Below, in pieces: positions 10,996 to 29,064 of a stretch of DNA of 64,000 bases. Both the position numbers and the translations under genes were made by a program. Numbering within the stretch: the first letter of the stretch is position 1; each line of letters opens with the position of its first letter. Under the pieces are notes generated by a model that was given only the letters and a program-made list of their open reading frames with translations, was not told where the DNA came from and ran no database searches. Source of the DNA: Candidatus Latescibacterota bacterium (GTDB lineage Bacteria > Latescibacterota > UBA2968); contig OZ240241.1 of NCBI GenBank assembly GCA_965198115.1, forward strand, positions 8,032,001 through 8,096,000. Reading direction: 5' to 3'.

Positions 10996-12415
10996 GGCTC
11001 TATCCGGGTTTCTCAACGGTGAAACTATAGAATGACAAGGTCATAGATCGTTCCCTACGCTTGGTTGTGTGTGTAGGACAATCAAAGCGAAGGGGGTGCG
11101 ACCTATGACCGGGAGCAGATTACTATCGAAACTGCTGAGATTCAAGGGGTTCCGTGTTGTCAGCTGGTGGTTTGAGGGGAGAAGCTGCTTCGTCATCGCC
11201 GTAAAGCCACATAAGAATGGTTGTTGTTGTCCGGAGTGCGGCCGTCGAGGTAAAATCGTCCGCACAATGCCCCATCCGCGTCGGTGGCGTGACATTCCGG
11301 TGTGCGGGTGGAGGGTCTGGCTTCTCTACCATCCTCGGGAGATTCGGTGTCCTACCCACGGTCGTGTGGTCGAGGAGATTCCGTGGGCGGAGCGGTTCTC
11401 TCGGGTGACGTATCGCTTCGAGTATGCCATGCTGCGCTACTGCCAGACCATGACGCAGAAGGCGGCGTCCGAGTTACTGCGCATCTCTGCCTCGACGCTG
11501 TCGGATCTCCTTCACCGATCCATCACGCGGCTTCGTGAAGGTCATCGTATCCGAGGGCTCAAAACCATCGGGATCGACGAGATCTCCTACGCCAAGCGTC
11601 ACAGGTACGCCACGCTCGTTTACGATCTGGACCGCTCCTGCGTGGTGTGGGTTGGCCGCGGCAGGGCGCGTAAAACGATCGATCGGTTCTTCACAGAGGC
11701 TCTCAGTCCCTACCGGAGATCCAAGATCGAGTGGGCCTGCTGCGACATGAGCGAAGCTTACATCGGAGCCATCCAGGAACACTGTCCGAATGCCAAGCTG
11801 GTCCTCGATCGCTTTCACATCGTCAAGGCTCTCAATGCCGCCGTTGACGAGGTCCGTAAGGACCAGTGGCGTAAAGCTGCCCCGGATGAGCGCAAAGCCA
11901 TGAAGGGCCTCCGATGGCTCCTCTACCGGCACTCAGCGACACGCTCCAGAGGGGATACTCGGACACTCAAAGCACTGGAGAAGGCGAACTACCGAATCTA
12001 TAGAGCCTGGAGACTCAAGGACGAGTTCGAGCAGTTCTGGGAATACAAAGCGCCCTGGGCTGCCGAACGCTTCCTGAAATGCTGGACGACGTCCGCACTC
12101 AGAAGTCGACTTGAACCCCTGCGAAAGTTCGTCAGGACCCTGCGACAGCACTTCTTCGGCGTCCTCGCATTCGTGAACACGCGTCTTACCAACGCCATCG
12201 CCAAAGGCCTCAACCGAATCGTCCAAATCGTCAAGAACCGAGCCAGCGGATTCCGCACACTCGACGCATTCAACGATATGATCTTCCTTACCGTCGGAGA
12301 CATAAACATCCCTGAGCAGATTCCGAAGAGGTTCCGCACACGCTAACCGCGCCCCCATGCCAGGAACCACGGCACCTTCACCCACTTCATCTCGTTGAGA
12401 GATCCGAATATAGCC
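10996..12415 (+). mobile_element. ISL3-family IS, copy 2 (transposase 11069-12346)
   Basis: Near-identical to 1048-2467; 8-bp TSD ATAAATAA at 10988-10995 and 12416-12423. Confidence 0.95.
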
Positions 12416-12983
12416 ATAAATAAACGGTCGATCTCAATGTTGAGCCATTGGCCGGATCGTGTAGTTCCAGTCGCCGTGGAAATCGTGCGGAGTGAGATCG
12501 ATTTGGGTCATCTGTTCATCGGTCACCTTGACCCCGTTAGGGTAGGGTCGCTTGTCGATCTCGGAGCGTACTCGGAGACCGGCTTGAGTGGTCGTTCCGG
12601 CAATGAGATTCACGGTTGCAGCCAGGCTGACCAGGGGCTTGCCTCGCCAGTTCATAGCGATGAAGGAGAACAGGCGATGTTCGATCTTGTTCCACTTACT
12701 AGTGCCAGGAGGGTAGTGGCATACGGTGATCGTCAGGCCAGTGCGATTCGCAAAGCGCTGCAGCTCCCACTTCCACAGCCGCGTCTTGGCGCCGTTGCTG
12801 CCGCCTGCGTCCGCCGTGATTAGCAGATGCGTCGAAGTGCCGTAGGCGGGCCGTCCCATGTTCTTCCACCAACTTCGGATCGCATTCACGGCGAAGCTGG
12901 CCGTGTCGTGATCGATACCGACACTTACCCAGCCTTCATCACGGCTCAGATCATACACTCCATAAGGGATCGCCTTGCCCTGA

Positions 12984-14277
12984 GGATTTGCCACGAAATA
13001 AGTGCTGCACTTTTCAAGGTAATGATCTTACGCTCGGAGTGTGGACGTCGAAACTCTCCGAACGAAGTATGAAGCCTTGGCTCCGGTGCTGACGGAACGC
13101 ACGCGTCGTCTGTGGGCCGCCACGGAAGCCGAAGCGTTGGGTCACGGTGGGATCGCGATTGTGGCTCTGGCGACAGGAATGTCCAGAGAGCGGATCTTTC
13201 GTGGCATTCAGGAGTTGAGGTCGGACGAACCTTTGGACCCGGCTCGCATCCGGCGTCCAGGCGGCGGTCGTAAGCGGAAGGCCGACACGGACCCGACGCT
13301 GTGGCAGGACCTGAATGATCTGGTCGAGCCAACGACTGCGGGGTCGCCTGACGACAATCCTCTGAGATGGACATCGAAGAGCACTCGCAAACTGGCCGCC
13401 GAGTTGCAAGCGATGGGGCATTCGGTGAGCCCCAGGATCGTTGCCAATCTCCTGCACGAACACGATTACACGCTGCAGGCGAATCGGAAGACAAGGGAGG
13501 GATCTGCACACCCGGATCGGGACGCTCAGTTCGTTTACCTCGATGATCGGATTAGCCAGCAGCAGCAGCAGGGCCTTCCCGTTATCTCGGTGGACACCAA
13601 GAAGAAAGAGTTGATCGGCGACTTCAAGAATCCTGGCCGAGAATGGCGACCCAAGGGAGACCCGGAGCGTGTGAAGGTACACGATTTCATAGTGCCTGCT
13701 CAGGGCAAGGCGATCCCTTATGGAGTGTATGATCTGAGCCGTGATGAAGGCTGGGTAAGTGTCGGTATCGATCACGACACGGCCAGCTTCGCCGTGAATG
13801 CGATCCGAAGTTGGTGGAAGAACATGGGACGGCCCGCCTACGGCACTTCGACGCATCTGCTAATCACGGCGGACGCAGGCGGCAGCAACGGCGCCAAGAC
13901 GCGGCTGTGGAAGTGGGAGCTGCAGCGCTTTGCGAATCGCACTGGCCTGACGATCACCGTATGCCACTACCCTCCTGGCACTAGTAAGTGGAACAAGATC
14001 GAACATCGCCTGTTCTCCTTCATCGCTATGAACTGGCGAGGCAAGCCCCTGGTCAGCCTGGCTGCAACCGTGAATCTCATTGCCGGAACGACCACTCAAG
14101 CCGGTCTCCGAGTACGCTCCGAGATCGACAAGCGACCCTACCCTAACGGGGTCAAGGTGACCGATGAACAGATGACCCAAATCGATCTCACTCCGCACGA
14201 TTTCCACGGCGACTGGAACTACACGATCCGGCCAATGGCTCAACATTGAGATCGACCGTTTATTTATTCGCGAACCC
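12984..14277 (+). mobile_element. ISAzo13-family IS, inner intact copy
   Basis: Ends GGATTTGCCACGAAATAA and TTATTTATTCGCGAACCC; TSD TGA at 12981-12983 and 14278-14280. Confidence 0.95.
13041..14249 (+). CDS. ISAzo13 (Rhodopirellula-type) DDE transposase
   Basis: ISVDTKKKELIG, ITADAGGSN and PPGTSKWNKIEHRLF motifs. Confidence 0.95.
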   Translation: MDVETLRTKYEALAPVLTERTRRLWAATEAEALGHGGIAIVALATGMSRERIFRGIQELRSDEPLDPARIRRPGGGRKRKADTDPTLWQDLNDLVEPTTAGSPDDNPLRWTSKSTRKLAAELQAMGHSVSPRIVANLLHEHDYTLQANRKTREGSAHPDRDAQFVYLDDRISQQQQQGLPVISVDTKKKELIGDFKNPGREWRPKGDPERVKVHDFIVPAQGKAIPYGVYDLSRDEGWVSVGIDHDTASFAVNAIRSWWKNMGRPAYGTSTHLLITADAGGSNGAKTRLWKWELQRFANRTGLTITVCHYPPGTSKWNKIEHRLFSFIAMNWRGKPLVSLAATVNLIAGTTTQAGLRVRSEIDKRPYPNGVKVTDEQMTQIDLTPHDFHGDWNYTIRPMAQH

Positions 14278-15200
14278 TGAGCAGGCACTATGAAATCGTG
14301 TACCTTCACACGCTCCGGGTCTCCCTTGGGTCGCCATTCTCGGCCAGGATTCTTGAAGTCGCCGATCAACTCTTTCTTCTTGGTGTCCACCGAGATAACG
14401 GGAAGGCCCTGCTGCTGCTGCTGGCTAATCCGATCATCGAGGTAAACGAACTGAGCGTCCCGATCCGGGTGTGCAGATCCCTCCCTTGTCTTCCGATTCG
14501 CCTGCAGCGTGTAATCGTGTTCGTGCAGGAGATTGGCAACGATCCTGGGGCTCACCGAATGCCCCATCGCTTGCAACTCGGCGGCCAGTTTGCGAGTGCT
14601 CTTCGATGTCCATCTCAGAGGATTGTCGTCAGGCGACCCCGCAGTCGTTGGCTCGACCAGATCATTCAGGTCCTGCCACAGCGTCGGGTCCGTGTCGGCC
14701 TTCCGCTTACGACCGCCGCCTGGACGCCGGATGCGAGCCGGGTCCAAAGGTTCGTCCGACCTCAACTCCTGAATGCCACGAAAGATCCGCTCTCTGGACA
14801 TTCCTGTCGCCAGAGCCACAATCGCGATCCCACCGTGACCCAACGCTTCGGCTTCCGTGGCGGCCCACAGACGACGCGTGCGTTCCGTCAGCACCGGAGC
14901 CAAGGCTTCATACTTCGTTCGGAGAGTTTCGACGTCCACACTCCGAGCGTAAGATCATTACCTTGAAAAGTGCAGCACTTATTTCGTGGCAAACCCTAAA
15001 CAGCAATTTACACCTTCGCGCCTGCGTGCACGCACGAAAGAGAACGAGATGAGCACGTGGCCGACATCCGACGATACGACAACGGCACACGCGTAACCGA
15101 CATCGTTGCTTTTCTGCACGTGAAACTGCTGACGGGCCGACCCGGTCATGAGTCAGTGAACCCCTGAACGTAGAGGACACTGATTGTCTGGAGGGTCGTC

Positions 15201-15740
15201 ATGCTCAGAGCGCTGTTGTGTGCGGTTGCCTTGGTGTCTTGCCAGGACCGGCTTGCCTACCTGCAGCAAACCTGCGGAGGAACCTGGGAGTTGCAGTCGA
15301 GGGAGCTGTCTGACGGAACGGTCTTGCATCGACCGGATGTCGTTGGATTGATGTACTGGCACGCCATCGACACGCGAAAAGCACACGTCACCGTGACGAT
15401 TATAGCCAAGGGTGAACACTTCAGGCTGGATCACTCGGCAAGCACTTACGAAATCTCCACTTCCGCAATCACCCGGAAGCGACACTTCCTCGCCAAGAAG
15501 GGCTACAGACCGACAGAGGTTGGAGTTCAGAGCTATTCGGTGGAACTCACACGAAAGGGGAAACTATCGATCGAAGATGACGACTCGATCGTCATGACGC
15601 ATCTGGCCATTCCCGATGAAGCCAGTCATCGAGGCGACCAAATAGGGTACAGGCAGGTGTTCCAGGGGAACACCATGGTTGCCTCCTATCAGGACACCTT
15701 CAGGGACACGTGGAAAAAGCTGACACCATCCGGCCAATGA
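15201..15740 (+). CDS. Hypothetical lipoprotein
   Basis: RBS GGAGG; signal peptide with lipobox-like LVSC. Confidence 0.65.
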   Translation: MLRALLCAVALVSCQDRLAYLQQTCGGTWELQSRELSDGTVLHRPDVVGLMYWHAIDTRKAHVTVTIIAKGEHFRLDHSASTYEISTSAITRKRHFLAKKGYRPTEVGVQSYSVELTRKGKLSIEDDDSIVMTHLAIPDEASHRGDQIGYRQVFQGNTMVASYQDTFRDTWKKLTPSGQ

Positions 15741-15818
15741 TCTGATCGAACAACCAGGTCATCTGTTCCAGCCAAGGTCCGTGTAGCTGGCTTCAGGGGC
15801 GAAGCCGTCTCCGCTTTG

Positions 15819-16835
15819 TCACTGGTCAATGCCTGCCATCCACAATTCTCCAAACCCCTCCGTCATCTTGATGTAGGGTCTTCCCTCATCGTCCAACAGG
15901 ACGAAACACCCTTCGATACCCTCCGTCGCAGTGATGAAGGCAAGCCCATCTTCTACGCCCATCACGAAGGCCGCCGTCGCTGCCGCATCCACCAGCGCTT
16001 CGTCCGGACCCACGACGGTCACACTCGCGACCGCATCCACAGGCTGACCCGAACGCGGATCCAGAATATGGCCGTAACGACGACCTCCGATCCTCACAAA
16101 ACGCTCATAACCTCCCGAGGTCGCCACGGAGGCATCTCTGACGTGCAACGGACCCAGGACCCCTTCCTGGCGCGTGGGATCCTGTAGGGCAACCGGACCC
16201 TGTGCCTCTTCGCCGAAAACCATCAGATTTCCACCTAGATCCACCGTGCCGGCGACCGCGCCCTCCCCCAGCATGGCCTCCCGCGACAGCCCCAACGAAT
16301 AGCCCTTGGCAATGCCGCCCAGATCCACGCCTGTCACCGGAGATGCGAGCCGCAATCGCGATCCTGCCGAATCGAAAGAGATTAGCTGGTAACCGACTCC
16401 GGAAAGCACCGAATCGATCGCTCCCGCAGTCGGAATACACGTGACGCCACCGCGGAATCCCCACAGATACATCAAGGGAAGCACGGTTGGATCGAAAGCG
16501 CCGCCCGTTGCCTTCGCCACGCGGACCGCACGCTCGACGACCGCGAATGTGTGCGTATCGACCGAAACCCACCCACGGGATCCCTCCGCGTTCAACCGAG
16601 ATACGTCGCTGTTCGTCCGGTACGTGCTCATGAGGTCGTCGACGCGATGGAGGGCCCCGAACCCACGGTCTATCGCCCGCTTACACGTGACGGAGTCAGG
16701 CCCCCACGCTTGGACACGCGCGAGTGTGCCCATCACGAGCTCGACACGCTCGACGCGCACAACGAGGTCGTCGCTCGCCACCACAGGTGTGGCGACAGCT
16801 ATGACAAGGGAAAGGAGACTAGAAACTGGACCCAC
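15819..16835 (-). CDS. apbE: FAD:protein FMN transferase
   Basis: VMGT, GAFDPTV, DLGGIAKGY, VATSGGYER, HILDPRSG and DAAATA motifs. Confidence 0.95.
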   Translation of the reverse strand: MGPVSSLLSLVIAVATPVVASDDLVVRVERVELVMGTLARVQAWGPDSVTCKRAIDRGFGALHRVDDLMSTYRTNSDVSRLNAEGSRGWVSVDTHTFAVVERAVRVAKATGGAFDPTVLPLMYLWGFRGGVTCIPTAGAIDSVLSGVGYQLISFDSAGSRLRLASPVTGVDLGGIAKGYSLGLSREAMLGEGAVAGTVDLGGNLMVFGEEAQGPVALQDPTRQEGVLGPLHVRDASVATSGGYERFVRIGGRRYGHILDPRSGQPVDAVASVTVVGPDEALVDAAATAAFVMGVEDGLAFITATEGIEGCFVLLDDEGRPYIKMTEGFGELWMAGIDQ

Positions 16836-17616
16836 GACGGGGTTTGTTGTTCCATCGTCTGAGCAGGAGAAGACCTGTCACGACGAGTGAAACGAGGGCG
16901 ATACCGGCGCCATCGTGCACGTAGCGGAACCAATCTGCGAAATAGTAGCCGGTATGGATCTGATGGATGACTTTGTATAGATCGAATGAAGAGGCATCTC
17001 CAGACGGCCGCCAGCTCGTTCCGCCGGATTCGCTCACGAAGAGACCGGAGGAGGTAACGAGGGTCATCTTCTCCGACGGGCCGATCGCCAATCGCTCCAG
17101 CCGGATTCCCTCCGCAGCCGGACGGAACCCGATCGTAAAGGGTTCCCAAACGGTCCCGCCATCGATCGAACGAATCAGCCCGTAGTCCTCGAGCGCAATA
17201 TAGATACGCTTCGAGCTGCCTGGAACAAAGACGATGTCGACCACCCCCTCGGCCGGGAACAGCATCGGGACTTCCTCCCACGTGTTTCCGCCGTCGACCG
17301 AGCGTTCGAGTGCTCGATCCGATCCGCGATAGACCACGGAAGCATCGGACGGGTCGTAGGCGACGACCTCGGTGCGCTCGGCGTTGACGCCGAACAGCTC
17401 AGGGTGGTTCAGCACGACGCCCGTCACCGCAAGTGAGATAACAAAGAGGGCCGACACGCCGCCGATCCAGCGATGCCAGGTGCGAAGGTTCTCGTTCAAC
17501 TGCCTGCCTCGACCGTTCGATGCACGTCGCCGAGCCGTCCGGCGCCACGAGAGAGGGTTTTTCCACCGACGAGTGGACGTGGTCGTCGCGCGTTCATGCT
17601 CGGATGAAATAGCCAC
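16819..17616 (-). CDS. PepSY-associated TM (cytochrome b-like) protein with Asp-box repeats
   Basis: LRTWHRWIG...TGVVLNH and IHQIHTG His motifs; three SxD/SGGxTW-type repeats. GTG start is inferred. Confidence 0.8.
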   Translation of the reverse strand: MAISSEHERATTTSTRRWKNPLSWRRTARRRASNGRGRQLNENLRTWHRWIGGVSALFVISLAVTGVVLNHPELFGVNAERTEVVAYDPSDASVVYRGSDRALERSVDGGNTWEEVPMLFPAEGVVDIVFVPGSSKRIYIALEDYGLIRSIDGGTVWEPFTIGFRPAAEGIRLERLAIGPSEKMTLVTSSGLFVSESGGTSWRPSGDASSFDLYKVIHQIHTGYYFADWFRYVHDGAGIALVSLVVTGLLLLRRWNNKPRRGSSF

Positions 17617-17617
17617 G

Positions 17618-18196
17618 TCAATCTTCCCTCTGCGGGTAAGCCGCATCCACGACAGCCAACGCCTTCTTCACACCTGCGTTCAAAGCCCTCACAGATAGCG
17701 TCGCCCCCGTCACGCCAATGATGTCACGGTTGATCCTAATCGAGCTCTTCAAGCCTTTGCCTCGATACTGCCTCAGGAAACGCTGACGACGGACCTCGCC
17801 CCCACGCGATTCCCTATAAACCATCACGTGCACCGCTTCGACTTTTCGATCCTCGTCGATCTTCGTCAGAAAGGTAATTGGTCTGTAAAGCCCGATCTCG
17901 TTGCTGACAATCGCAAATCCCATCGGCTTGCCACCCCCAACTCCTCGGTGAATCGTGTAGGTCGAGTCGACCACGCGCCACCCAAGACGTCGCTCTAGCG
18001 CCCGAAGGTCTTCTCGCTCGGCCGTCCTCGTTTCCGCCCAAACGGTATCCGCCTCTTCGAAGACCTCTTCCAGCGCTTCCTCAAGGGTCAGGTAAACGAC
18101 GATGTGTTCCGGACCATCCGGACTCTCCGCAGGAAGCTGCGCGCTGGCATCGATCGCCAGACAGAACGTCAATAGGAGAATCAGATCACTTCCCAC
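17618..18196 (-). CDS. Periplasmic FMN-binding (flavinylated) protein
   Basis: Signal peptide; YRESRG...FLRQYRGK...DIIGVTGATLS matches the [S/T]GA[S/T] flavinylation motif. Confidence 0.9.
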   Translation of the reverse strand: MGSDLILLLTFCLAIDASAQLPAESPDGPEHIVVYLTLEEALEEVFEEADTVWAETRTAEREDLRALERRLGWRVVDSTYTIHRGVGGGKPMGFAIVSNEIGLYRPITFLTKIDEDRKVEAVHVMVYRESRGGEVRRQRFLRQYRGKGLKSSIRINRDIIGVTGATLSVRALNAGVKKALAVVDAAYPQRED

Positions 18197-18203
18197 CTCC
18201 GGC

Positions 18204-18281
18204 TAAGCCGCCGTGCTCTGCACGGGCATGTGGCCTCAGCCGGTTAGCCAAACTCGGGATGTCACCGTGCAAAGCACGGGG
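18204..18281. repeat. REP-like palindromic doublet
   Basis: CCGTGC-TCT-GCACGG (18211-18225) and CCGTGC-AAA-GCACGG (18265-18279). Confidence 0.55.
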
Positions 18282-18324
18282 ACGAGCGTGAAGCCGGGCT
18301 TTCGTGTATTTCGTGGTTCCTGGT

Positions 18325-19473
18325 TCAGAAGTACGTCGACACCGAAAAAAAGAACCGCCCTGCTACGCCGCCTCGAGCCCCGTTGGCCGGTGTCTTCCAG
18401 ATCGACGCATAGTCGAACTTGAACACCGCGTCCTCGACCGGGCGGAAGTTGAGGCCCAACGTCAACCCCAGCTCGGAGTCGCCCTTCGCGTCCGTGTCGT
18501 AGTCCACCCAATCCCATCGGACCACACCCGTGAAGACCGAGCCGGGCAGGAAATGATCGTGACCGAAGTGGACATTCGCCTGTCCGTATGCGCCTTGCTG
18601 TGACTCCGCCGTGGCTGGATGGGCTGTCAGGTCGACATCCGCGGCGACCCGTCCGTACTCACCCTGCACCTCCCAGATACCTCTGACGACCTTCGCGTCG
18701 AGCCCGAGAATCGTCAGGTTGTGATCGCCTGCGTCGTCGTAGGCTCCTGTGTGAATCGATGCACCGAAGTTCATGCCCAACCGTGGACTCAGCCCGAATC
18801 GGGCGGTGACCGCCTTGTTCTGGTTGTTGTCGCTCTTCTGACTTCCACGCCCACCTCGAACGCGAAGTCCGCCGGAACTGCTGATGACCTTGTCGTTGAA
18901 CCCATTGACGACGTAGATCTCGTAAGACGCCACAGAGAGTTCGGAGGGGTAAAAGGTCCCGTAAAAACCCATCCCCGATTCGCTCAACGTCGATGGCATG
19001 ATCTGCCGGTTGACCGTCGGACGTTCGGTCAGGTCGTTGAGCGGACTGTCGTGCAGCAGATTGAAGACACCCAGCGGAGCGAGAATGACACCGCCACGAT
19101 AGTTGAAGCTTTCGGTGAACTCGAAGTCCATCACGGCATACTCGAGCTTGATCTCCCCGTCCGTCGTCCCTCCTCCCTTGACGAAGCCGCCGTGTTCGAA
19201 CTCAATCTCCGCCGTCACCCGGACCCGATTGCTGACCTGACCGTAGATGAAAGGAATGAACCGATGCTGATCGAACGTGCTCTTTCCCCCCTCGTTCCAC
19301 TCGAATTCGTGGTCCAGGTAACCCCCGATCGTCACCCCGCGACCGGCGCGCCTCAGGTAGGGTTTGTCGTAGATTCCCCCCGGTAGCTCCGGACGGGGTT
19401 CCTTCTCCTCACCGACCGAAGGGGACGGCAGGGTGAAGAACAGCCCCAGGAGAACCAGAAATGCCCGCGACAT
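18325..19473 (-). CDS. Outer-membrane porin (OprO/P-like beta-barrel)
   Basis: RBS GGAGG; signal peptide; EIEFEHGG...EIKLEYA; alternating beta pattern; C-terminal YF. Confidence 0.8.
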   Translation of the reverse strand: MSRAFLVLLGLFFTLPSPSVGEEKEPRPELPGGIYDKPYLRRAGRGVTIGGYLDHEFEWNEGGKSTFDQHRFIPFIYGQVSNRVRVTAEIEFEHGGFVKGGGTTDGEIKLEYAVMDFEFTESFNYRGGVILAPLGVFNLLHDSPLNDLTERPTVNRQIMPSTLSESGMGFYGTFYPSELSVASYEIYVVNGFNDKVISSSGGLRVRGGRGSQKSDNNQNKAVTARFGLSPRLGMNFGASIHTGAYDDAGDHNLTILGLDAKVVRGIWEVQGEYGRVAADVDLTAHPATAESQQGAYGQANVHFGHDHFLPGSVFTGVVRWDWVDYDTDAKGDSELGLTLGLNFRPVEDAVFKFDYASIWKTPANGARGGVAGRFFFSVSTYF

Positions 19474-19513
19474 CCGCCACCTCCGAAACCCATTTGTTAT
19501 GCTAGTCATACTT

Positions 19514-19573
19514 ATGTTTTATATGCCAAACATCTGATAACTTCATTATACACGCGGGCTATACCTGTGTCAA
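19514..19573 (-). promoter_or_regulatory. Sigma70 promoter plus palindromic operator for the porin operon
   Basis: TTGACA-17-TATAAT on the minus strand (19573-19545); palindrome ATGTTT-N8-AAACAT at 19514-19533. Confidence 0.85.
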
Positions 19574-19589
19574 CCCGATTTTTCACGAA

Positions 19590-21467
19590 TTACCCTCCCA
19601 ATCCGACCATCGACGTCACCTGAAAGACCGCGAAGGCTCCGACATAGGCGAGGATCGTCATGTACATGAAGGAGAACCCCGCCCATCCCCACGATCCGGA
19701 TTCGCGGCGTATGACCGCCAGCGTCGACGAGCATTGAGCGCATAGCGCAAAGAAAACCATCACCGACAGCGCGACCGGAATCGTGAACGCGGGGCTTCCG
19801 TCTTCCCGCCGCGCATCGATCAGCGCGCTCTTCAGCGATTCCACGTCCTCGCCTCGATCCTCCACGCTGTAGATCGTCGCCAAAGAAGCCACGACAATCT
19901 CCCGAGCAGGAAAAGCGCTCAAAGAGGCAACCGCCAAACGCCAGTCCCACCCAAGGGGTTCGACGGCCGGCTCGATCAGACGTCCCGCCCGACCGAGGAA
20001 GCTGTTTCGGAGGACGGCAGTCTCATCAGCCCCGCCCCGCGGAAACGTGGCAAGCGCCCAGATAATCAATGAAGCAACGAAGATGACCGTGCCCGCCCGG
20101 CGCAGAAAAGCGTGGCACGCGTGGTAGACGCGAAGCCAGATCGTGCGCGCGTTCGGAACCTTGTAGGATGGCAGTTCCATCAGGAAAGGACCGGACGTTC
20201 CTCTGAGCGTCGATCGCTTCAGGATCCTCGCCACGGGTATGGCGACGACGATTCCCAACAGGTAGAGTCCCATCATCGTCAGACCCTGAAGGCCAATCCA
20301 CCCACCGATCGCAATGTTCGGGATGAACGCCGCGATGAACAGCGTATACACCGGAAGACGAGCCGAGCAACTCATAAGCGGAGCGACGAGGATCGTAGCC
20401 AGTCGATCTCTCCGGTCTTCGATCGTTCGGGCGGCCATGATGCCCGGCACCGCACAGGCGAAACTGCAAAGCATGGGAATGACCGAACGACCGGACAGAC
20501 CGCACCACCGCATCAGACGGTCCATCAACAAAGCCGCCCTCGGCATGTAGCCACAATCTTCCAGGACCGAAATCGCGAAGAACAGGAAGGCGATCTGAGG
20601 AAGGAAAATCACGACGCTGCCGACACCCGCGACCGCTCCGTCGACCACCAGACTTCGCACGAGACCTCGCGGGACGTAAGCACCGATCCAGTGCCCCAGT
20701 GTCGCCACCGTTCGGTCGATCACATCCATCACCGGCGCCGACCAGCTGAAAATGGCTTGGAAGACGATCAGCATGACGGCGAAGAAAACGACGGATCCGT
20801 AAACGGGATGGGTCACAACCCGGTCGACACGATCGGAACGACTGTCGAAGAGTCCCTCCGGGCGGGTGACGGCTCCGTCGAGAATCGTGTCGATCCAAGT
20901 CTCCGAATCAGACTCGGGTGAGGACATCGGTTTCCGGGGCGATCGTAAGCAGGCGATCAGGTCCTCGATACCCTCGCGTCGAGTGGCGCAGACCTCCACC
21001 ACGTCGATTCCAAGACGGGCAGCGATGCGTGCACAGTCGACGGCAATACCCTTCTGTCGGCCGATATCGACCATGTTGATGGCCAGAACGCAGGGCAGAC
21101 CCGTTTGCACGACCTCGGCAACGAGGTTGAAGTTTCTTTTCAGATGAACAGCGTCGACGACAATCAGGACTGCGGAGAGGGGACGCTCGTCTTCGAGCCG
21201 GTTTTGGAGGACTTCCCCGACGACTCTTTCGTCGGGCGAACGACCCGTAAGCGTGTAGCTCCCGGGAAGGTCAAGGAGGTCGAGGTGGAATCGGTCGGCT
21301 ACACGGAGGCTGCCTTGTTTGCGCTCGACCGTCACACCCGCGTAGTTGCCGACCCGCTGATGCATTCCGGTCAGAGCATTAAAAAGGGTCGTCTTACCCG
21401 TATTTGGGTTTCCGACGACCCCGATGAGTGGCGACTCGGTGTCCGCCTCTTTAAGGGAAGGGTTCAC
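19590..21467 (-). CDS. feoB: Ferrous iron transporter B
   Basis: GNPNTGKT, NYAGVT, DLPG and NMVD GTPase motifs; LEDCGYMPR and MSCSARLP gate motifs. Confidence 0.95.
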   Translation of the reverse strand: MNPSLKEADTESPLIGVVGNPNTGKTTLFNALTGMHQRVGNYAGVTVERKQGSLRVADRFHLDLLDLPGSYTLTGRSPDERVVGEVLQNRLEDERPLSAVLIVVDAVHLKRNFNLVAEVVQTGLPCVLAINMVDIGRQKGIAVDCARIAARLGIDVVEVCATRREGIEDLIACLRSPRKPMSSPESDSETWIDTILDGAVTRPEGLFDSRSDRVDRVVTHPVYGSVVFFAVMLIVFQAIFSWSAPVMDVIDRTVATLGHWIGAYVPRGLVRSLVVDGAVAGVGSVVIFLPQIAFLFFAISVLEDCGYMPRAALLMDRLMRWCGLSGRSVIPMLCSFACAVPGIMAARTIEDRRDRLATILVAPLMSCSARLPVYTLFIAAFIPNIAIGGWIGLQGLTMMGLYLLGIVVAIPVARILKRSTLRGTSGPFLMELPSYKVPNARTIWLRVYHACHAFLRRAGTVIFVASLIIWALATFPRGGADETAVLRNSFLGRAGRLIEPAVEPLGWDWRLAVASLSAFPAREIVVASLATIYSVEDRGEDVESLKSALIDARREDGSPAFTIPVALSVMVFFALCAQCSSTLAVIRRESGSWGWAGFSFMYMTILAYVGAFAVFQVTSMVGLGG

Positions 21468-21769
21468 GCAGCACGTGCTTCAGCGACCACGGGTTCTACC
21501 GTGATCCGCCGAGCATCTTCCTCCCTCAGACAAAACCGGCCCCCCTCGGTGTGCACGACCACAGCTGTCCCGCGTCGTAGGAGACGCACAGCGACACCCG
21601 GCACGATTCCGACGGCGCGAAGCCGATCCGATAAACCGTTCGATGAGTCGATCGCTAACACGGTCGCCAGTTCCTGAGTCTGGAGGTGGTTCAGATGAAG
21701 CGGTTTATCATTTTGGCGCAGATCGTCATCAACCAGCCGGATGAACCCTAACACGTCGTTTCTCCTCAT
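21464..21769 (-). CDS. feoA: Ferrous iron transport protein A
   Basis: RLRAVGIVPGVAV...FCLREEDARRITV; 4-bp overlap with feoB. Start is uncertain. Confidence 0.85.
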   Translation of the reverse strand: MRRNDVLGFIRLVDDDLRQNDKPLHLNHLQTQELATVLAIDSSNGLSDRLRAVGIVPGVAVRLLRRGTAVVVHTEGGRFCLREEDARRITVEPVVAEARAA

Positions 21770-21820
21770 TATAATAGATCCATGGGCGAGCAGCGGCCCA
21801 CAATTAGCCTTGCAAAGCGG

Positions 21821-21880
21821 TTGTTTGGCTAATCAAACATCTGGTGACTGAACAATACCGCACCCTTTGGACCGTGTCAA
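21821..21880 (-). promoter_or_regulatory. Sigma70 promoter plus palindromic operator for feoAB
   Basis: TTGACA-17-TATTGT on the minus strand (21880-21852); palindrome TGTTTG-N6-CAAACA at 21822-21839. Confidence 0.8.
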
Positions 21881-21894
21881 CAAGAATGTGGTCC

Positions 21895-22374
21895 TTATCC
21901 GAGATCCCGGTCGACCAGAAACAGACCGTATTTGTCGTCGCCCACGAGCTTTAGCTTTTGAACGATGTCTCCAACGTGCGCCTCTTCCTCGACCTGGCGT
22001 TCCACAAACCATCTTAAAAAGTTGTCCGTCGCGTGGTCGCGCTCCGCTAGGGCCACATCAACGAGGTCATTGATCATTCCGCTAGCCCGTTGCTCCTCTT
22101 CATAAGAATCCAGGATCGCGACAATCGGAGACTCCCACCTGTCCGGGGGTTCGGAGATCAGATGGAGACCCACCTTGCACCCGCGTTCGTGAATGAAATC
22201 GTAGATGCGGAGCGCGTGACCTCGTTCTTCCTGGTACTGGCTCCGTGCCCACTTGGCAAAGCCGTTCAGGTTCTCCACCCGAAAGTAGGACTCCATCGCG
22301 AGGTAATGATACGCGGAGTGAAACTCGTGGTTCATCTGGGTGTTCAGTGCATCCAGAACCTTCTCGTTGATCAT
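21895..22374 (-). CDS. ftnA: Non-heme ferritin 1
   Basis: HEFHSAYHY, EERGHA and WFVERQVEEE ferroxidase motifs. Confidence 0.95.
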   Translation of the reverse strand: MINEKVLDALNTQMNHEFHSAYHYLAMESYFRVENLNGFAKWARSQYQEERGHALRIYDFIHERGCKVGLHLISEPPDRWESPIVAILDSYEEEQRASGMINDLVDVALAERDHATDNFLRWFVERQVEEEAHVGDIVQKLKLVGDDKYGLFLVDRDLG

Positions 22375-22553
22375 TTCGACCCCCAGAACTCCGTGGTCAA
22401 ACGTTTACCCGCTCAGCGAAAGTGTAGGGACCGAAGACAGAAGGTCAAGGAAAAAGTCGTCTTCACCAGCCGGCGAAACGGTTTTGTCCCTCGTAACGTT
22501 TTGTGTATACTGGAACCTCTTGCGCTCCAGTATTTAGTACGATGGAGAAGATC

Positions 22554-23081
22554 ATGATCTCCGACAGAATGTTGCAGGCCCTGAACGATCATCTGAACAT
22601 CGAATTCCAGGCGGCCTACTATTATCTGGCTATGTCTGCCTTTTTCCTGCGGAAGGATTTCAACGGCTTCGCACAATGGATGCGCGCGCAGCACGGCGAG
22701 GAAATGGTCCACGCCATGAAGTTCTACGACTTCATCGACGATCGGGACGGCGCGATCGAGATGAAGCCGATTCAGGGCGAAGAAACGGCCTGGGACAGCC
22801 CCCTCCACGCCTTCGAAAGCGCGCTGGCTCGCGAGCGAGACGTCACTTCTAAAATTTACGATCTGGTGGACCTGAGTCACGAACTACGCGATCACGCCTC
22901 GAACACGTTTCTCCAATGGTTCGTGACCGAGCAGGTCGAAGAAGAGGCCACGGCCACGGACATCATCCAGCAGCTCAAGCTGATCGGTGACGACGGAAAT
23001 GGGCTCTTTATGCTCGATCGGGAACTGGGTCAAAGAAGCGGCGTCACCGCCGAAGACGAAGCTGGCGCACATCCGGCCTGA
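22554..23081 (+). CDS. ftnA: Non-heme ferritin 2
   Basis: IEFQAAYYY, EEMVHA and WFVTEQVEEE; RBS GGAG. Confidence 0.95.
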   Translation: MISDRMLQALNDHLNIEFQAAYYYLAMSAFFLRKDFNGFAQWMRAQHGEEMVHAMKFYDFIDDRDGAIEMKPIQGEETAWDSPLHAFESALARERDVTSKIYDLVDLSHELRDHASNTFLQWFVTEQVEEEATATDIIQQLKLIGDDGNGLFMLDRELGQRSGVTAEDEAGAHPA

Positions 23082-23187
23082 GCGTACGAGGGTCAGTATC
23101 AGAAGAGCTATCCCATGCGCCGACCATGAGAGCTTGTTACTAAACAGCATGGATCTAGCCTAAATGCAGTCTTTACAAGATGATTTG

Positions 23188-23216
23188 TTGACAAAGCCAC
23201 ACTGCGGTATTATCTT
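23188..23216 (+). promoter_or_regulatory. Sigma70 promoter of the sigma54 activator gene
   Basis: TTGACA-17-TATCTT. Confidence 0.7.
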
Positions 23217-23278
23217 GCTTAATATTCTCCATCGAAGCACCTGTCCCGTTCCCCACGGGAACCATTCCCCCGGCTAAC

Positions 23279-24261
23279 ATGTCAGACTTCAGCCGTGTCA
23301 TCGGCAAGAGCCCTGTAATCCAGGAACTCCTCGATCTTATTGAGCGCGTCACGAGGAATCCTGAGATTTCGGTCTTGATCTGCGGGGAAAGCCAGGACTT
23401 CTTTGCCGGTTCCTGGCCAGAACGATTCACGAGAACAGCGCGGTCGGCGACGAGTTGTTCGTCGAAGTCAACTGCGCCGTCATTCCCGAGCATCTGCTCG
23501 AGTCCGAGTTGTTCGGATACGAAAAGGGCGCCTACACCGGTGCCGATCGTCGAAAACGTGGACTTTTCGAGTTGGCCGACGGTGGCACACTCCTGCTCGA
23601 CGAGATCGGCTACATGAGCTTGGCGCTCCAGGCGAAGCTTCTCAAAGCGATCGAAGAAAAGACCTTTCGCCGCCTGGACCTGGGTGGCGAGCTCGAAGTC
23701 CAGGTCAAGGCACGCATCATCGCCAGCACGAACATCGACCTCGAAGCGGCAATGTCCGAGCAGAATTTTCGCGATGACCTTTACTATCGGCTGAATGAAA
23801 TCCAGATCACCTTACCGCCGCTACGGGAGCGTGGTGAGGACGTCATTCTCCTGGCGGAAAACTTCATAGAGGAATTCGCACGGACGTATAAACTCGGTCA
23901 ACGAACCCTGGCCGAGACGTCCAAGCAGCTGCTACGAGAATATCACTGGCCGGGTAACGTACGCGAGCTCCGGAACGCAATTAAACGTGCGATGATCATG
24001 CACGACGCAGAGACGCTGCAACCCGACATGGTGCCGGTCAGTATTCGCACCACGAATTCGTTGGCCACACAGCGTTGGAACAGCAATCAGCTCGTGATTG
24101 ACATACCCGACGACGGCGTTACCTTTGAGGAAGTCGAAAGACGCGTCATCGAGCACACGCTCAAGTCGACCGACTGGAACAAGAACAGATCAGCGAGGAT
24201 GCTGAAGATTTCCCGACCTCGCCTGCTTCGAAAGATCGAAAAATACGAACTTGAACCATAG
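23279..24261 (+). pseudogene. Sigma54-dependent enhancer-binding protein (AAA+ and Fis HTH), frameshifted at Walker A
   Basis: VIGKSP...VLICGES in frame 2; VNCA, ESELFG, GAYTGA, LLLDEIG, WPGNVREL and HTH in frame 1. Confidence 0.9.
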
Positions 24262-24579
24262 ACTCTGCTAAGGAGGTGAAAAGCAGCCGCGGCAGTCCGG
24301 TCCGGTTCCCCTACTCGACCTGCAAAATCTTCCAGACCCCACAACGTGTCCATCGCGACCCATCACATCCGCCCCCCACGGCGGGTGGGGTAGCAAAACC
24401 CTGCGACACGGCGGAAGAAGCGAATTCCTCTTAGAATCCCCGTTGGACCCCATTGTTCTGAGCAACTCCCCTCAGACGTGATAGTGAAGTCGATTCGGGA
24501 CCTCGCAGGAGACTCCGGTTTCGGATCGTGCAGATGACCATTGAAGTCGCTTGTTCTACAGCGACTCGGGGGGAAACGA

Positions 24580-25461
24580 ATGCCGTCCACCGTATTGCGT
24601 GGAAAGGATGAGCCCAAGACACCGGGCAGACGACGTTCTGCGCTGGAACTCTATCTCAAAGACATCGCCTACAACACCCTGTTGACACCCCAACAGGAAT
24701 TCGACCTGGCGGTTCGAATACGGGCGGGAGATCGCAAAAGTCTCGACAAAATGGTCGAGTCGAACTTGCGATTTGTGATCACGATCTCCAAAGAATACCA
24801 GGGAAGGGGGCTCCTTCTGGAGGACCTGATCGCCGAGGGGAACGTCGGACTCGTCCGGGCCGCCACCCGCTACGACGAAACCGTCGGCGTCAAGTTCACC
24901 ACCTATGCCGTTTGGTGGATTCGCCAGGGGATCCTTTCCGCTCTCGCGGAAAAGGCACGGATGGTCCGCCTGCCCGTGAACAAGATCAAACACCTCTGTC
25001 GCCTGGAGAGAATCGCGTCGGGTCTCAAACAGGAGCTCGGCCGGGAGCCCACGACCGATGAGGTGGCCAAATCGGCCGAGATGCAGCCTCAACAGATCCA
25101 GGATCTTCTCGACGCCTCGCGCTGGCACGTCTCACTCGATACACCACTCGAAGACGGGCCCGACACGTCTCTGCTCGAAATCATCGAAGATAAAGACGCC
25201 GTCACACCCGAACACGTCGTCATGCACCAGGCCATGGTCGACGAAGTGCGCTCCGCGCTCGAGTCGCTGTCCCCCAGGGAGGCGCAGATCTTGAAGCTTT
25301 ACTTCGGTCTGGACACCGAAGACCCCCTGACGCTCGAGCAGATCGGCAACCAGTTCAGCCTGACCAAGGAGCGTGTGCGTCAGATCCGTGACAAGGCACT
25401 GGCGGCGCTGAAGCACCCCTCTCGAATGCGCAAGATTCGAGTCTACCTGATGGAAAACTGA
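24580..25461 (+). CDS. RNA polymerase sigma70 factor (RpoD/RpoS-like, lacks region 1.1)
   Basis: NLRFV, DLIAEGNVGL, KFTTYAVWWIRQ and TLEQIG...ERVRQI motifs. Confidence 0.95.
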   Translation: MPSTVLRGKDEPKTPGRRRSALELYLKDIAYNTLLTPQQEFDLAVRIRAGDRKSLDKMVESNLRFVITISKEYQGRGLLLEDLIAEGNVGLVRAATRYDETVGVKFTTYAVWWIRQGILSALAEKARMVRLPVNKIKHLCRLERIASGLKQELGREPTTDEVAKSAEMQPQQIQDLLDASRWHVSLDTPLEDGPDTSLLEIIEDKDAVTPEHVVMHQAMVDEVRSALESLSPREAQILKLYFGLDTEDPLTLEQIGNQFSLTKERVRQIRDKALAALKHPSRMRKIRVYLMEN

Positions 25462-25474
25462 GCGGAGCAGAGAC

Positions 25475-25843
25475 GTGTCCTTCGAAGTCCTCGGAATCCA
25501 TCACACCACCCTCGTCGTGTCCGACCTCGATGCGGCGCGCACCTTTTATCGTGACGTGCTGGGCCTGTCGACGATCGATCGACCGGACTATGACTTCGAA
25601 GGCGCGTGGTTCCGGTGCGGCGACATCGAGTTTCATCTGATCGTGGCCGAAGAACACCTCGCGCCATCCAGACGCCACCTCGCCCTCTCCGTCGACGACT
25701 TCGACGGCTGTCTGCAACATCTTCAACGGAACGAGGTGCGACTCGTGGGTGGGCCCGGTACTCGACCCCACAGCGGGCGCTCGTTCGCGTTTTGCAAGGA
25801 CCCGGGTGGCAACCTGATAGAGATCACCGGACCACCCGCCTGA
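25475..25843 (+). CDS. VOC/glyoxalase family protein
   Basis: IHHTTLVVSDL...FYRDVLGL...HLAL...DPGGNLIEI. Confidence 0.9.
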   Translation: MSFEVLGIHHTTLVVSDLDAARTFYRDVLGLSTIDRPDYDFEGAWFRCGDIEFHLIVAEEHLAPSRRHLALSVDDFDGCLQHLQRNEVRLVGGPGTRPHSGRSFAFCKDPGGNLIEITGPPA

Positions 25844-25858
25844 GGGGTCGGACCACGT

Positions 25859-25902
25859 CACAGTAAAGGGGTCGCGGCAGTGTCGCGACCCCCTTTACTG
25901 TG
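25859..25902. terminator. Bidirectional-type hairpin terminator
   Basis: CACAGTAAAGGGGTCGCG...CGCGACCCCCTTTACTGTG between convergent genes. Confidence 0.75.
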
Positions 25903-26088
25903 TGCTATCCCTAGCCTGCTTGTTCTCCGAGCCAATGCTAAGCCTCGAGAAGCCTCTGGCCCAGAAGACGGGTGGGGACGAAGAGAACGGACGTGCCACA
26001 ACGGCTGTGACGGGCGCAACCGTCGACCTGAGGCTACCGACCTCTGCCTTCCGTAACCCTCTCGAGCACGGTTGCCGCGTCGATTAGG

Positions 26089-28869
26089 TCATTCAGCATC
26101 CCGGTCGGAAACCATATAGTGCTCGCGCTGATGCTCCAGCACAGAGGCCGTCACCGCAACGACCGTCGGCACATCTGACCCATACGTTTCCTGCAGGCGC
26201 TCGAGCGTCGACGGTCCGTCCAGTTCGGGCATCAGCATGTCCATGAAAATGATGTCGGGCATTCGATCGGTCACGCGTTCCAGGGCTTTGACCCCGTTTT
26301 CGGCCACTTCCACGTCCACCCCGACTTGCCTCAGGAATCTGGCAAGCAGCTCGCGGTTCGTTTCGACGTCATCCACGACGAGGGCGTGCACCGTAGAGCC
26401 CGGCGCCAAGCGCTCCACTCGGGTCCAACTGGAAGTTTCATCGACTGCGACCGGATCTCGAGCCGGCTCAAAGGGAATCGTGAAGAAGAATCGGGCCCCC
26501 TCGCCCGGCTGCGATTCCAGCTGGATCCGGCCACCCATCAGCTCCACCTGCCGGCTGGCAATCGCTAAACCAAGGCCCGACCCTCCCTCACGAAGCCCCT
26601 CGCTGTCCTGCTGAAACGGTTCGAAGATCGAGACCTGCCTGTCCTGGGCAATACCTGGACCGGTGTCGGAGATGTCGAAAGTGACCTGCCCTTCTTCGAG
26701 AGATGTGACGCGAAGTAAGACTCCACCTTCAACCGTAAATTTGACCGCATTCCCCAGCAGGTTGATCAGCACCTGTCTCAGCTTCCCCTCGTCGCCGTGG
26801 ACGGCCAGGGTTTCGATCTGACTCTCGAAGCACCACGTCAGGTCCTTCTGCGCGCAGCGAACCGCGAACATCGATTCGGTGCTCTGAAGGATCGCCCCCA
26901 GATCGAAGTCGGCGAGGCGCAACACCTCCCGCCCGGCTTCGATCTTCGAAATGTCCAGGATGTCATTGATCAGCGTAAGAAGGTGGTTGCCGCTGTTCTC
27001 GATCGTGACGATCGCTCTCCGCTGCGAATCGCTGACGTCTGGGTCTCCTTCCAGGATCTGCGCGTAGCCGAGGATCGCGTTCAAAGGTGTGCGGATTTCG
27101 TGTGACATGCTCGCCAGGAAGACGCTCTTGGCGTTGTTCGCCTCCTCCGCAGACACCCTTGCCTCCTTCAGCGCCTCTTCGAATCGTTTTCGCTCTGTGA
27201 TATCTCGAAACGTGCCGACGTAGAAATCGTTCTCACCCGTCTCCGCGTGGGTGAGCGACACCTCCATCGGAAACGTCGTGCCATCTTCTCTCCGCCCCAC
27301 CGTCTCACGATGCCCCTCGTGTAGGATGATGTCCGGGATGGTCGATGATCCGGTCCCGTGCCCGTCGAAAAGCATCGTCACGGGCTGACTGACCAGTCGG
27401 TCCTGACTGTAACCGAAAATCAGCTCAGCCGCAGGATTCAGACTCAGGACGGAGAACGTGTCTTTCGCGAAAGTGATCACGCCGTCCATCGCACTGCGAA
27501 CGGTGGCCTCCGTCCTCGCCGTGGCCCGCTCCAGTGCTTCCATCACGGCGTTGTAGCGGTTCGCAATCTGTCCAACTTCCGTAAAGGGTTCGACGGGCAC
27601 GCGCAGATCGAGTTCACCCGTTCGCGACTGATGTTCCATGACCCTGAAGAGGTCGATCAACTCGGTCGTCGCACCGTGTTCGGAGATGTTCAGTCCGTCC
27701 GTCTCCTGTTCGGGCGTCACGCGAAGGGGGGAGAGACGATCGACCAGTCGGAGTACGATGGTGGTCACGCCGAACGCCCACGCACCGCAGACGAGCACCC
27801 CCTCGACCTGCGCCTGAAGCTGCTCCATCAGACCGAGGTTCGTTCCCAGGCGGTCCAGGTCACCGAACAACGCGACGGCGATCGTCCCCCAGATACCAGC
27901 CGCCAAGTGGACGGGAACGGCCCCTACAGCGTCGTCGATCCGGCATCGTTCCAGCAGAACTTCCGCCCCCACCATCACGACACCGCCCACGACGCCGATG
28001 ATCACGGCAGACGGAGTCGAAACCGCGAGAGCACCTGCCGTGATCGCGACGAGTCCCGCCAGCGAACCGTTCAGGATCGAACCCACATCTGCTCGGCCCC
28101 GTCTCAACCACCCCAACCCCATCGCAGCCACGAGCCCCGCACCTCCCGCGAACACCGTGTTGGCGATTACCCCCGGCACGTCTTCGTTCATCGCCAGCGT
28201 GCTGCCACCGTTGAATCCGAACCATCCGAGCCATAGGAGGACCACTCCTAGCGCTGCCGTCGGAAGGTTGGCACCCGGTACCTGACGGGAAGAACCGTCG
28301 TCGGAGAAGCGGCCGGTGCGCGGTCCGATGATCAGCAGGATCGCAAGGGAACACTAGCCGCCCACGCTGTGGACCACCGTCGACCCGGCAAAGTCGAAGA
28401 ACCCACGATGTGCGAGCCACCCGGTTGCCGAAGCGGTCTGGACACCATTCCAGGCCCAGTGCCCGAAAACCGGGTAGACGATGCCCGAAACGACCGCCGC
28501 GACGACAAGGTAGCTGGCAAACCGCATCCGCTCCGCCACTGCACCCGAAACGATCGTTACAGCCGTTCCGCAGAACATCGCCCCGAACAACAGAAAGGCC
28601 GCGGTCCATCCGTTTTCGCCACCGAGGTTCGGGACGAAACTGGAAGTTCCGATCCATCCCGCGCTCGAGGCACCGAACATCAGGCCGTATCCCAGTGCCC
28701 AGTAGAGAACGACCGACATCCCAAGATCGGCAAGGTTCTTCACAGCAACGCTGATGTTGTTCTTGCTGCGAGTCAGACCAGTTTCAAGACAGAGGAATCC
28801 CCCCTGCATCAGGAAGACGAACCCCGCGCAGACCGAGACCCAGAGAATGTCGACCAGCGATTTTTCCAC
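26089..28869 (-). pseudogene. amt: Ammonium transporter-PAS-histidine kinase-receiver fusion with in-frame TAG at 28354-28356
   Basis: FLMQGGF...DFAGSTVVHSVGG*CSL...GPRTGRF...LWLGWFGFNGGS; PAS; FLASMSHEIRTPL; NAVKFT; GLGL; REC (IFMDMLMP) truncated before the KP lysine. Confidence 0.88.
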
Positions 28870-29012
28870 CTGCTTAACCTCAGCTAAGTCTTTATATCGT
28901 TCGTCCTGCTTTGCATTCAGGTCCAACGAGCCTAAAGGTCCGGAAAGCGAACAGACCCTGCAAATGCATATTCCAACAGACTTCGCTCATCTCATTTCCC
29001 ACGGGTACAAGA

Positions 29013-29046
29013 GAAGGGGGTCGCGAATGAATCGCGACCCCTCTTC
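29013..29046 (-). terminator. Hairpin terminator after gcvPB
   Basis: GAAGGGGGTCGCGA-ATGAA-TCGCGACCCCTCTTC. Confidence 0.7.
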
Positions 29047-29064
29047 ACGTGCTCGCCACGATCG

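Follow-up and report, generated by a model that had tools for sequence, protein, structure and literature searches.

Background

For PepSY-like flavinylation clusters, Meheust et al. (2021, PMC8238504) proposed a role in iron reduction and assimilation. In FoxB, a bundle of four helices is described as enclosing two b haems with His ligands (bioRxiv 10.1101/2021.01.28.428567), and known PepSY_TM proteins are reported to have at least four helices (PMC13038864). In Bradyrhizobium, FsrB reduces Fe(III) for FeoAB, according to a report that also states the reductase for inorganic iron to be unknown (PMC10760861). A Fur-boxed porin called 'psp' and porin-feoAB operons were described in Geobacter/Desulfuromonas (Rodionov et al. 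2004, PMC545781). The locus analyzed here contains feoAB and genes for a porin, an exported flavin mononucleotide (FMN)-binding protein, a half-size PepSY_TM membrane protein and the flavin transferase ApbE. It lies in a stretch of 64,000 nucleotides, called the window below, from Candidatus Latescibacterota bacterium (GenBank assembly GCA_965198115.1, contig OZ240241.1, positions 8,032,001 to 8,096,000).

We consider it probable that this locus provides an iron-repressed, TonB-independent route that reduces periplasmic Fe(III) for import by FeoB. The locus bears on the question of how diderm bacteria can acquire inorganic or weakly chelated Fe(III) without using siderophores. It offers a compact, self-contained candidate of four genes, with its own ApbE, that could be expressed in a laboratory host.

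Results and discussion

The porin operon and feoAB share an operator

All eight genes of the locus are intact, as checked by open reading frames and profiles, and the host genome is a single contig of 8.43 Mb that is 100% complete by markers. On the minus strand, a ferritin gene is followed by feoA, feoB, the porin gene and those for the FMN-binding protein, the PepSY_TM protein and ApbE; a second ferritin gene is divergent (Table 1). The Feo system consists of FeoA and FeoB, the latter with its G-motifs, gates and core domain. An initial annotation, made from the sequence alone, had named this gene set in this order, and each gene is present. It had also placed the genes from the porin to apbE in an operon directly downstream of feoAB. 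The adjacency is as described, but the porin has a perfect promoter of its own. Therefore, feoAB probably forms one transcription unit and the four-gene operon another.

The genome has four copies of the palindrome TGTTT-N8-AAACA, where 5-mer counts predict about 2.7, and two of the four lie directly after the feoA and porin promoters. Comparisons with relatives draw on 20 regions at the best full-length PepSY matches in 168 genomes of the phylum and four regions from GTDB. One of these 24 regions is a 2-kb fragment, which leaves 23 informative loci, 11 of them from one genus, so that neighborhood counts are not independent. The porin is preceded by an exact TGTT-N10-AACA in 16 of the 23, and the operator lies 39-41 nucleotides after TTGAC both in the window and in all 16 relatives with an exact match.

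The 8.43 Mb were scanned with a matrix derived from 14 sites in other genomes, one of which had been picked by eye. The two window sites ranked highest, the next site scored 16.0 bits, and three sites in the whole genome reached at least 14 bits; three shuffled genomes gave 1-3 sites of 16 bits or more. In loci outside the training set, at least 10 bits were found in 12 of 13 feoA/porin intergenic regions of family f4. Scores of at least 19.8 bits occur before 24 of 25 dtxR-feoA-feoB operons, as opposed to none of five other dtxR loci, and the operator appeared in one of 377 control windows. In genus g6, a large distance separates feoAB from the porin-FMN-PepSY cassette, yet both carry the operator. 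Thus, the link to Feo is regulatory and not positional. The initial annotation had counted on metal regulation, among other points, and an operator common to the porin and feoA promoters, with the two best sites in the genome, is consistent with that expectation.

Two further groups of genes were considered as members of the regulon and rejected. No operator site was found upstream of either ferritin gene, contrary to the earlier view of the ferritins as part of the system. Among TonB receptors, the best score was 4.8 bits over 18 of 20 matches, the other two being second pieces of split genes. Together with the plug-less porin, this agrees with the TonB independence proposed initially. The third operator-like site, at 4273811, scores 16 bits and precedes a ZupT-like gene (4272933-4273897) that is split over two frames; since shuffled genomes give such sites, we did not count it as evidence. 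No recognisable iron genes are beside the sites ranked 4, 9, 10 and 13.

Several relatives (L032-L047, L068) have a long conserved leader 5′ of the porin with a recurring GAGCCTGCCAGCCC stretch, which is absent from the window. Rfam gave no match at the gathering score in the window or in the two leader-bearing loci scanned (L032, L041).

Table 1 Features of the locus, with positions in the window
Feature	Position	Strand	Details
ApbE flavin transferase	15819..16835	-	PF02424, E 4e-71; DLGGIAKG, ATSG and GHILDP motifs
Half-size PepSY_TM protein	16819..17616	-	PF03929, 47.3 bits (cut-off 28.8); likely start GTG 17616, reading frame open from 17646
Exported FMN-binding protein	17618..18196	-	PF04205, 35 bits (cut-off 22); TGAT, residues 163-166, at 17699-17710
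Intergenic hairpin, partly a dispersed REP-like repeat	18197..18325	-	-50.3 kcal/mol, z -2.6; 35 short blastn matches elsewhere in the genome
Outer-membrane porin	18325..19509	-	Predicted 16-strand barrel, plug-less; likely start ATG 19473
Operator palindrome (TGTTT-N8-AAACA)	19515..19532	.	Directly downstream of porin promoter; 21.5 bits, rank 2 in genome
Porin-operon promoter, sigma-70 type	19545..19573	-	TTGACA-17-TATAAT, 12/12 consensus
FeoB ferrous iron transporter	19590..21467	-	TIGR00437, 485 bits (cut-off 316); PF02421, PF07670, PF07664
FeoA	21464..21769	-	PF04023, E 1e-12
Operator palindrome	21822..21839	.	Directly downstream of feoA promoter; 25.1 bits, rank 1 in genome
feoAB promoter, sigma-70 type	21852..21880	-	10/12 consensus
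Non-haem ferritin 1	21895..22374	-	PF00210, E 5e-37; NF007638 below cut-off; operator not found
Non-haem ferritin 2, divergent	22554..23081	+	PF00210; reading frame open from 22503; operator not found

A short DtxR-family protein as candidate regulator

The host genome has no match to Fur (PF01475) and has three DtxR-family genes (PF02742). Judging from its sequence and genomic distribution, the regulator of the palindrome is likely the short DtxR-family protein encoded at 1232605-1233144 (L170:8605-9144), which lacks a FeoA domain and has His/Cys ligands. It is conserved in 122 of 168 genomes; for the three main families, the counts are 29/30, 21/22 and 67/76. It is absent from family f3 (0/3), in which the cassette lacks the operator. 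Among the best 30 loci of this regulator, 25 are dtxR-feoA-feoB operons.

At the positions of Asp8, Glu11, His77 and Glu99 of MntR, the protein has His, Ala, Arg and Cys, which does not correspond to a Bacillus-type MntR site. Compared with the DtxR site (Met10, Cys102, Glu105, His106), the Cys, Glu and His are present, and a His occupies the Met10/Asp8 position. The arrangement Cys-x-x-Glu-His is the iron-type site of DtxR (PMC4805248). For the two remaining DtxR genes, the N-terminal ligand is Asp. These genes adjoin TroA/MntC and a second FeoB and are associated with a TTAGG-type box; by analogy, they resemble manganese systems such as the PgMntR-FeoB2 pair reported in Porphyromonas (PMC4805248). 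Given the iron-type ligands, the absence of the four MntR ligands and the existence of separate manganese-like DtxR systems, iron is the likeliest signal.

The regulon with the TTAGG-type box (1228031-1232472) comprises genes for a DHOR-like cytochrome, a Rieske protein, a paralogous porin with 40% identity to that of the window, a TroA/MntC-like protein and an MntR-like regulator. To the same regulon belongs the region 5483487-5486765, where a membrane-anchored twin-FeoA regulator precedes a split FeoB2, an arrangement that resembles PgMntR-FeoB2.

The membrane protein resembles half of FoxB

The PF03929 match of the PepSY_TM protein covers the second half of the model only (positions 156-291 of 295), and the protein has no PepSY domain. 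It consists of a first helix with His48, three BNR/propeller blades (residues ~80-208) and a second helix with His221. The predicted structure (predicted local distance difference test, pLDDT, 78) shows a helix, about 125 residues of sheet and another helix, and a fold search matched the sheet to three beta-propeller blades (best Z 13.1). FoxB is not among the matches listed, which concern the propeller part, and a 56-residue query of helix 2 gave no match. A search of representative sequences was dominated by BNR-repeat proteins, so family size is not derivable from it.

Two His residues, one on each side of the membrane, are invariant in the family (His48 in 25/25, His221 in 27/27). Others are less conserved: His71 occurs in 22/26, His218 in 24/27, and the position of His234 is Tyr in 21/27. 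FoxB and FsrB (COG3182) have at least four helices and two PepSY domains per chain, whereas this protein has two helices and propeller blades. It has two invariant His per chain; FoxB/FsrB have four conserved haem-ligating His, two on each membrane face, a number that this protein would reach only upon dimerisation. We therefore regard the protein as half of such a reductase. It likely binds haem, and a dimer would be the simplest way for a half-FoxB to complete two haem sites. The initial annotation had called it a His-bearing PepSY-TM protein and cited FoxB as an example of such proteins; the His residues and the family hold, but it corresponds to half of a FoxB rather than to a full one.

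In other loci (L070-L082, L091, L097, L103), the porin and FMN genes are followed not by the PepSY half-protein but by an unannotated four-helix membrane protein, in which a stretch E-x-x-H-F-H-L-F is conserved. The version in family f4 has no Pfam match over the cut-off.

Putative flavinylation partners and the porin

The FMN-binding protein has a hydrophobic N-terminus. Its TGAT motif, noted initially as a flavinylation site, is conserved as [ST]GA[ST] (TGAT or SGAT) in 68 of 74 homologues from the fetched loci; the other six comprise five with A/V-GAT and a single fragment. The adjacent ApbE, which is predicted to be exported on account of a hydrophobic N-terminal stretch, is the product of the second of two apbE genes in the host genome. 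Of 34 cassette-bearing genomes searched, 33 encode an ApbE at some location, and in three of six genomes inspected its gene is the last of an nqr-type operon, as labelled from translations. Natural fusions join FMN_bind to ApbE (L109:4677-6452) and the PepSY half to ApbE (relative P0241); as read from their sequences, they tie the parts of the module together.

For the porin, no Pfam or NCBIfam match exceeded the cut-off, including PF07396. Its predicted structure is a 16-strand barrel (mean pLDDT 81), for which a fold search found general porins and OprO/OprP at E about 1e-10 (OprO/OprP: TM score 0.59, 13% identity). The OprO/OprP phosphate porins are marked by a 16-strand barrel, PF07396 and an arginine ladder. 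There are 1872 homologues at E<=0.001, and many carry PF07396. We also considered a TonB-dependent receptor, i.e., a 22-strand barrel with a plug, and rejected it: the protein has 394 amino acids and 16 strands, and matches neither PF00593 nor PF07715.

Related loci

The order porin, FMN-binding protein, PepSY_TM protein is found in 23/23 informative loci. Ferritin genes lie within 8 kb in ten of these, and imelysin with di-haem DHOR follows in eight, which supports the iron context proposed at the outset. In genus g6, the downstream genes encode either a further porin together with imelysin and DHOR, or DHOR without the other two. A dtxR gene is directly upstream of the cassette in 3/23 loci. 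Other neighbors include a fragment of FTR1 upstream in L045 and Fur in L066 and L107.

Another sample comprised 15 regions on long contigs around porins of 51-77% identity. In all 13 loci of family f4, feoA and feoB are divergent from the porin, which is followed by genes for the FMN-binding protein and the four-helix His protein. This layout is a second arrangement that joins Feo and the cassette. The other two regions have a lone porin and a degenerate copy of the window's order. A close porin was also found in 24 of 80 metagenome loci, several of them truncated. The next gene encodes an FMN-binding protein in 14 of the 24, and the 24 include five PepSY, three four-helix, six ApbE and three FeoB genes. 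More distant porins, too, are often followed by FMN and ApbE genes.

Some related cassette copies are frameshifted or degenerate (L048, L050, L083, L084). One genome (G010) has two cassettes, and another (G067) keeps the ferritins and feoAB with a broken porin and an ApbE fragment. Judged by the porin, 11 of 21 genomes of genus g6 have the cassette. The degenerate copies and the patchy presence suggest that the cassette is frequently lost.

Proposed mechanism and alternatives

In the mechanism that we favor, the short DtxR-family protein, loaded with Fe(II), would bind the palindrome and repress the feoA and porin promoters. Iron shortage would lift this repression, and small ferric species would pass through the porin independently of TonB. 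The membrane protein would pair with a second copy of itself into a FoxB-like four-helix bundle, in which His48 and His48′ would hold a haem on the cytoplasmic side and His221 and His221′ another on the periplasmic side; the two three-blade halves may close into one propeller. ApbE would attach FMN to Thr163 of the FMN-binding protein. Electrons would then pass from some membrane or cytoplasmic donor through the haems and the FMN to Fe(III), FeoB would import the resulting Fe(II), and the ferritins would store the surplus, outside the control of this operator.

A bolder version of this proposal is conceivable, although we doubt it. It would posit a widespread, siderophore- and TonB-independent iron entry based on a porin and a covalent-FMN shuttle with interchangeable half-cytochromes. 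Pairs of half-FoxB proteins would assemble into a di-haem bundle and also into a six-blade propeller, to which the flavoprotein would dock. An undescribed His/Cys subfamily of DtxR would run this pathway and FeoAB, replacing Fur across most Latescibacterota.

Several observations weigh against reductive iron import. The neighborhood survey that the initial annotation called for gave a divided answer: the core gene order was conserved throughout, but FeoB is within 4.5 kb in 3/23 PepSY-type loci (four have ~1 kb or less upstream), and apbE directly follows the cassette in 4/23 (two loci end too early). Distant cassettes (L049, L066, L067, L090, L092-L094, L096, L099) lack the operator, and three metagenome porins with room downstream (L110, L111, L136) have no FMN gene. 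No electron-input domain is fused or adjacent in the module. The profile of the PepSY_TM family matches FoxB (7abw) weakly, with E 0.0038 over two stretches. As to cation selectivity, the conserved charged residues of the porin are of both signs (14 Asp, 10 Glu, 12 Arg, 5 Lys), and among specific folds the phosphate porins come closest. Finally, the nearest named models of the regulator are MntR, below every NCBIfam cut-off, and the Cys is also present in PgMntR, a manganese sensor (PMC4805248).

Co-regulation reflects common timing and not necessarily a common substrate. The flavoprotein could spare iron by replacing an iron-rich periplasmic carrier, or it could repair envelope redox as a general carrier, with the porin passing Fe(II) and ferric iron not being reduced for uptake. 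Iron-repressed flavodoxins, possibly replacing ferredoxins, are reported in the same kind of regulon (PMC545781), and the membrane partner of the module is interchangeable. The genome also has another set of porin-like, FMN, four-helix and ApbE genes, among haem-biosynthesis-like genes and without the operator. However, strict adjacency of porin and FMN genes across distant loci fits a substrate from outside, every neighbor of known role is an iron uptake or storage gene, and known PepSY_TM proteins are metal reductases. We thus regard this alternative as unlikely. Sequence cannot give the direction of electron flow either, and the module might instead oxidise or re-poise incoming Fe(II), or pass electrons to imelysin/DHOR. 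The imelysin and di-haem DHOR genes after some cassettes and the FTR1 fragment in L045 would fit such chemistry. On the other hand, covalent-FMN carriers generally have low potentials, which favors reduction, and FeoB, which takes Fe(II), is tied to the operator in 24/25 cases. This opposite or two-way chemistry seems to us improbable, somewhat more so than an iron-sparing carrier.

Equally improbable, in our estimate, is a regulon for manganese or for some other metal such as Zn or Cu, in which the regulator would be MntR-like and FeoB would carry manganese. In its favor are the MntR models that match the regulator best, all below cut-off, and the third-best operator site before the ZupT-like gene, although that site is within the range of shuffled genomes. 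A manganese-specific FeoB is reported in Porphyromonas (PMC4805248), the PepSY_TM protein CrpH is linked to copper, and the genome's two boxes are related palindromes, so that cross-talk is possible. Against a manganese role, the regulator lacks Asp8, Glu11, His77 and Glu99 of MntR, and the twin-FeoA regulator with FeoB2 and the TroA/MntC operon fill that role under another box. The ferritin and imelysin neighbors likewise point to iron, and Mn(II) needs no reduction. Reductive import of iron is thus the reading that we prefer. If it is correct, the membrane protein would be a split, modular form of a PepSY_TM cytochrome. The locus also gives a precise candidate operator and regulator for an uncultured phylum. 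If the redox role fails, the annotation of the regulon is still useful.

Other observations in the window and genome

A second flavinylation set at 4189065-4199682 comprises a porin-like gene, genes for a large exported protein, a four-helix His protein and an FMN-binding protein, an inserted transposase gene and apbE. The genes after this apbE are presumably related to haem d1/sirohaem biosynthesis. Downstream of the locus, the window has nested transposase genes (1121-2398 and 11069-14939), with two 425-amino-acid copies and a duplicated 402/359-amino-acid type, inverted. A lipoprotein-like open reading frame of 179 amino acids (15201-15740), convergent with apbE, has no Pfam or NCBIfam match and was not seen in related loci.

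Two genes of the window are split over two reading frames: a sigma-54 activator (23279-24261) and an ammonium-transporter/histidine-kinase gene (26089-28926). A contig of run X1, possibly the source of the DNA, is identical to the window over 15000-29200. It is not independent, and its agreement at the split genes is no independent check on assembly error.

Comparison with known systems

No description of iron biology in Latescibacterota was found in the literature searched, nor one of a porin-FMN-PepSY-Feo unit, in a search outside which most subscription papers fell. The initial annotation knew of no characterised unit of this kind, and that statement stands for the printed descriptions searched. 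However, the class of cluster is published (PMC8238504), and FsrB with FeoAB is a precedent (PMC10760861), which lowers the novelty of the locus. The main text of PMC8238504, whose cluster table (supplement 1) may list such loci, mentions none of porin, FeoB, FeoA and ferritin; the terms porin, FeoB and ferritin are also absent from the portion of Huang et al. 2024 (PMC11334425) consulted.

The locus falls under the operational definition of Meheust 2021 for a PepSY-like flavinylation system, with a PF03929 gene next to PF02424 and PF04205 genes. An exported ApbE and a [S/T]GA[S/T] substrate are also present. DUF2271 and DUF4198, frequent but not defining partners, had no Pfam match among the 15 locus proteins scanned. 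The locus shares with the published clusters, as far as PMC8238504 and PMC11334425 describe them, a PF03929 protein with ApbE and a flavinylation substrate, a proposed role in iron reduction and assimilation, and iron repression, which is probable for the locus. Those clusters mostly have DUF2271 (2833/3220) and DUF4198, are accompanied by VIT1 or TonB receptors, and are linked to Fur. By contrast, the locus of the window has FMN_bind, a plug-less porin, FeoAB, a DtxR-family operator and a membrane protein of different build.

FoxB, FsrB, FpvG and CrpH (COG3182) have His-bearing helices at places that match those of the membrane protein, given the weak 7abw match. They are described as working with TonB receptors and as having four or more helices and a periplasmic part with large PepSY cavities. 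The membrane protein of the present module combines two helices with three propeller blades, and the module adds a flavoprotein and a porin of its own. The psp porin is described as iron-regulated and PF07396-like, with a proposed role in iron transport (PMC545781); by this description, the probably iron-regulated porin of the window, many homologues of which carry PF07396, resembles it. In the account given there, psp systems are under Fur, not DtxR, and are described without a flavoprotein, membrane cytochrome or ApbE. The short regulator shares with DtxR/IdeR and MntR the PF02742 family, and its presumed operator is likewise a palindrome directly downstream of the -10 box. It differs from them in having no FeoA/SH3 domain, in the His for Met10/Asp8, and in its box, TGTTT(T/G)-N6-(A/C)AAACA. 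Taken together, the locus is a variant inside the published PepSY-like flavinylation class, and not a new class.

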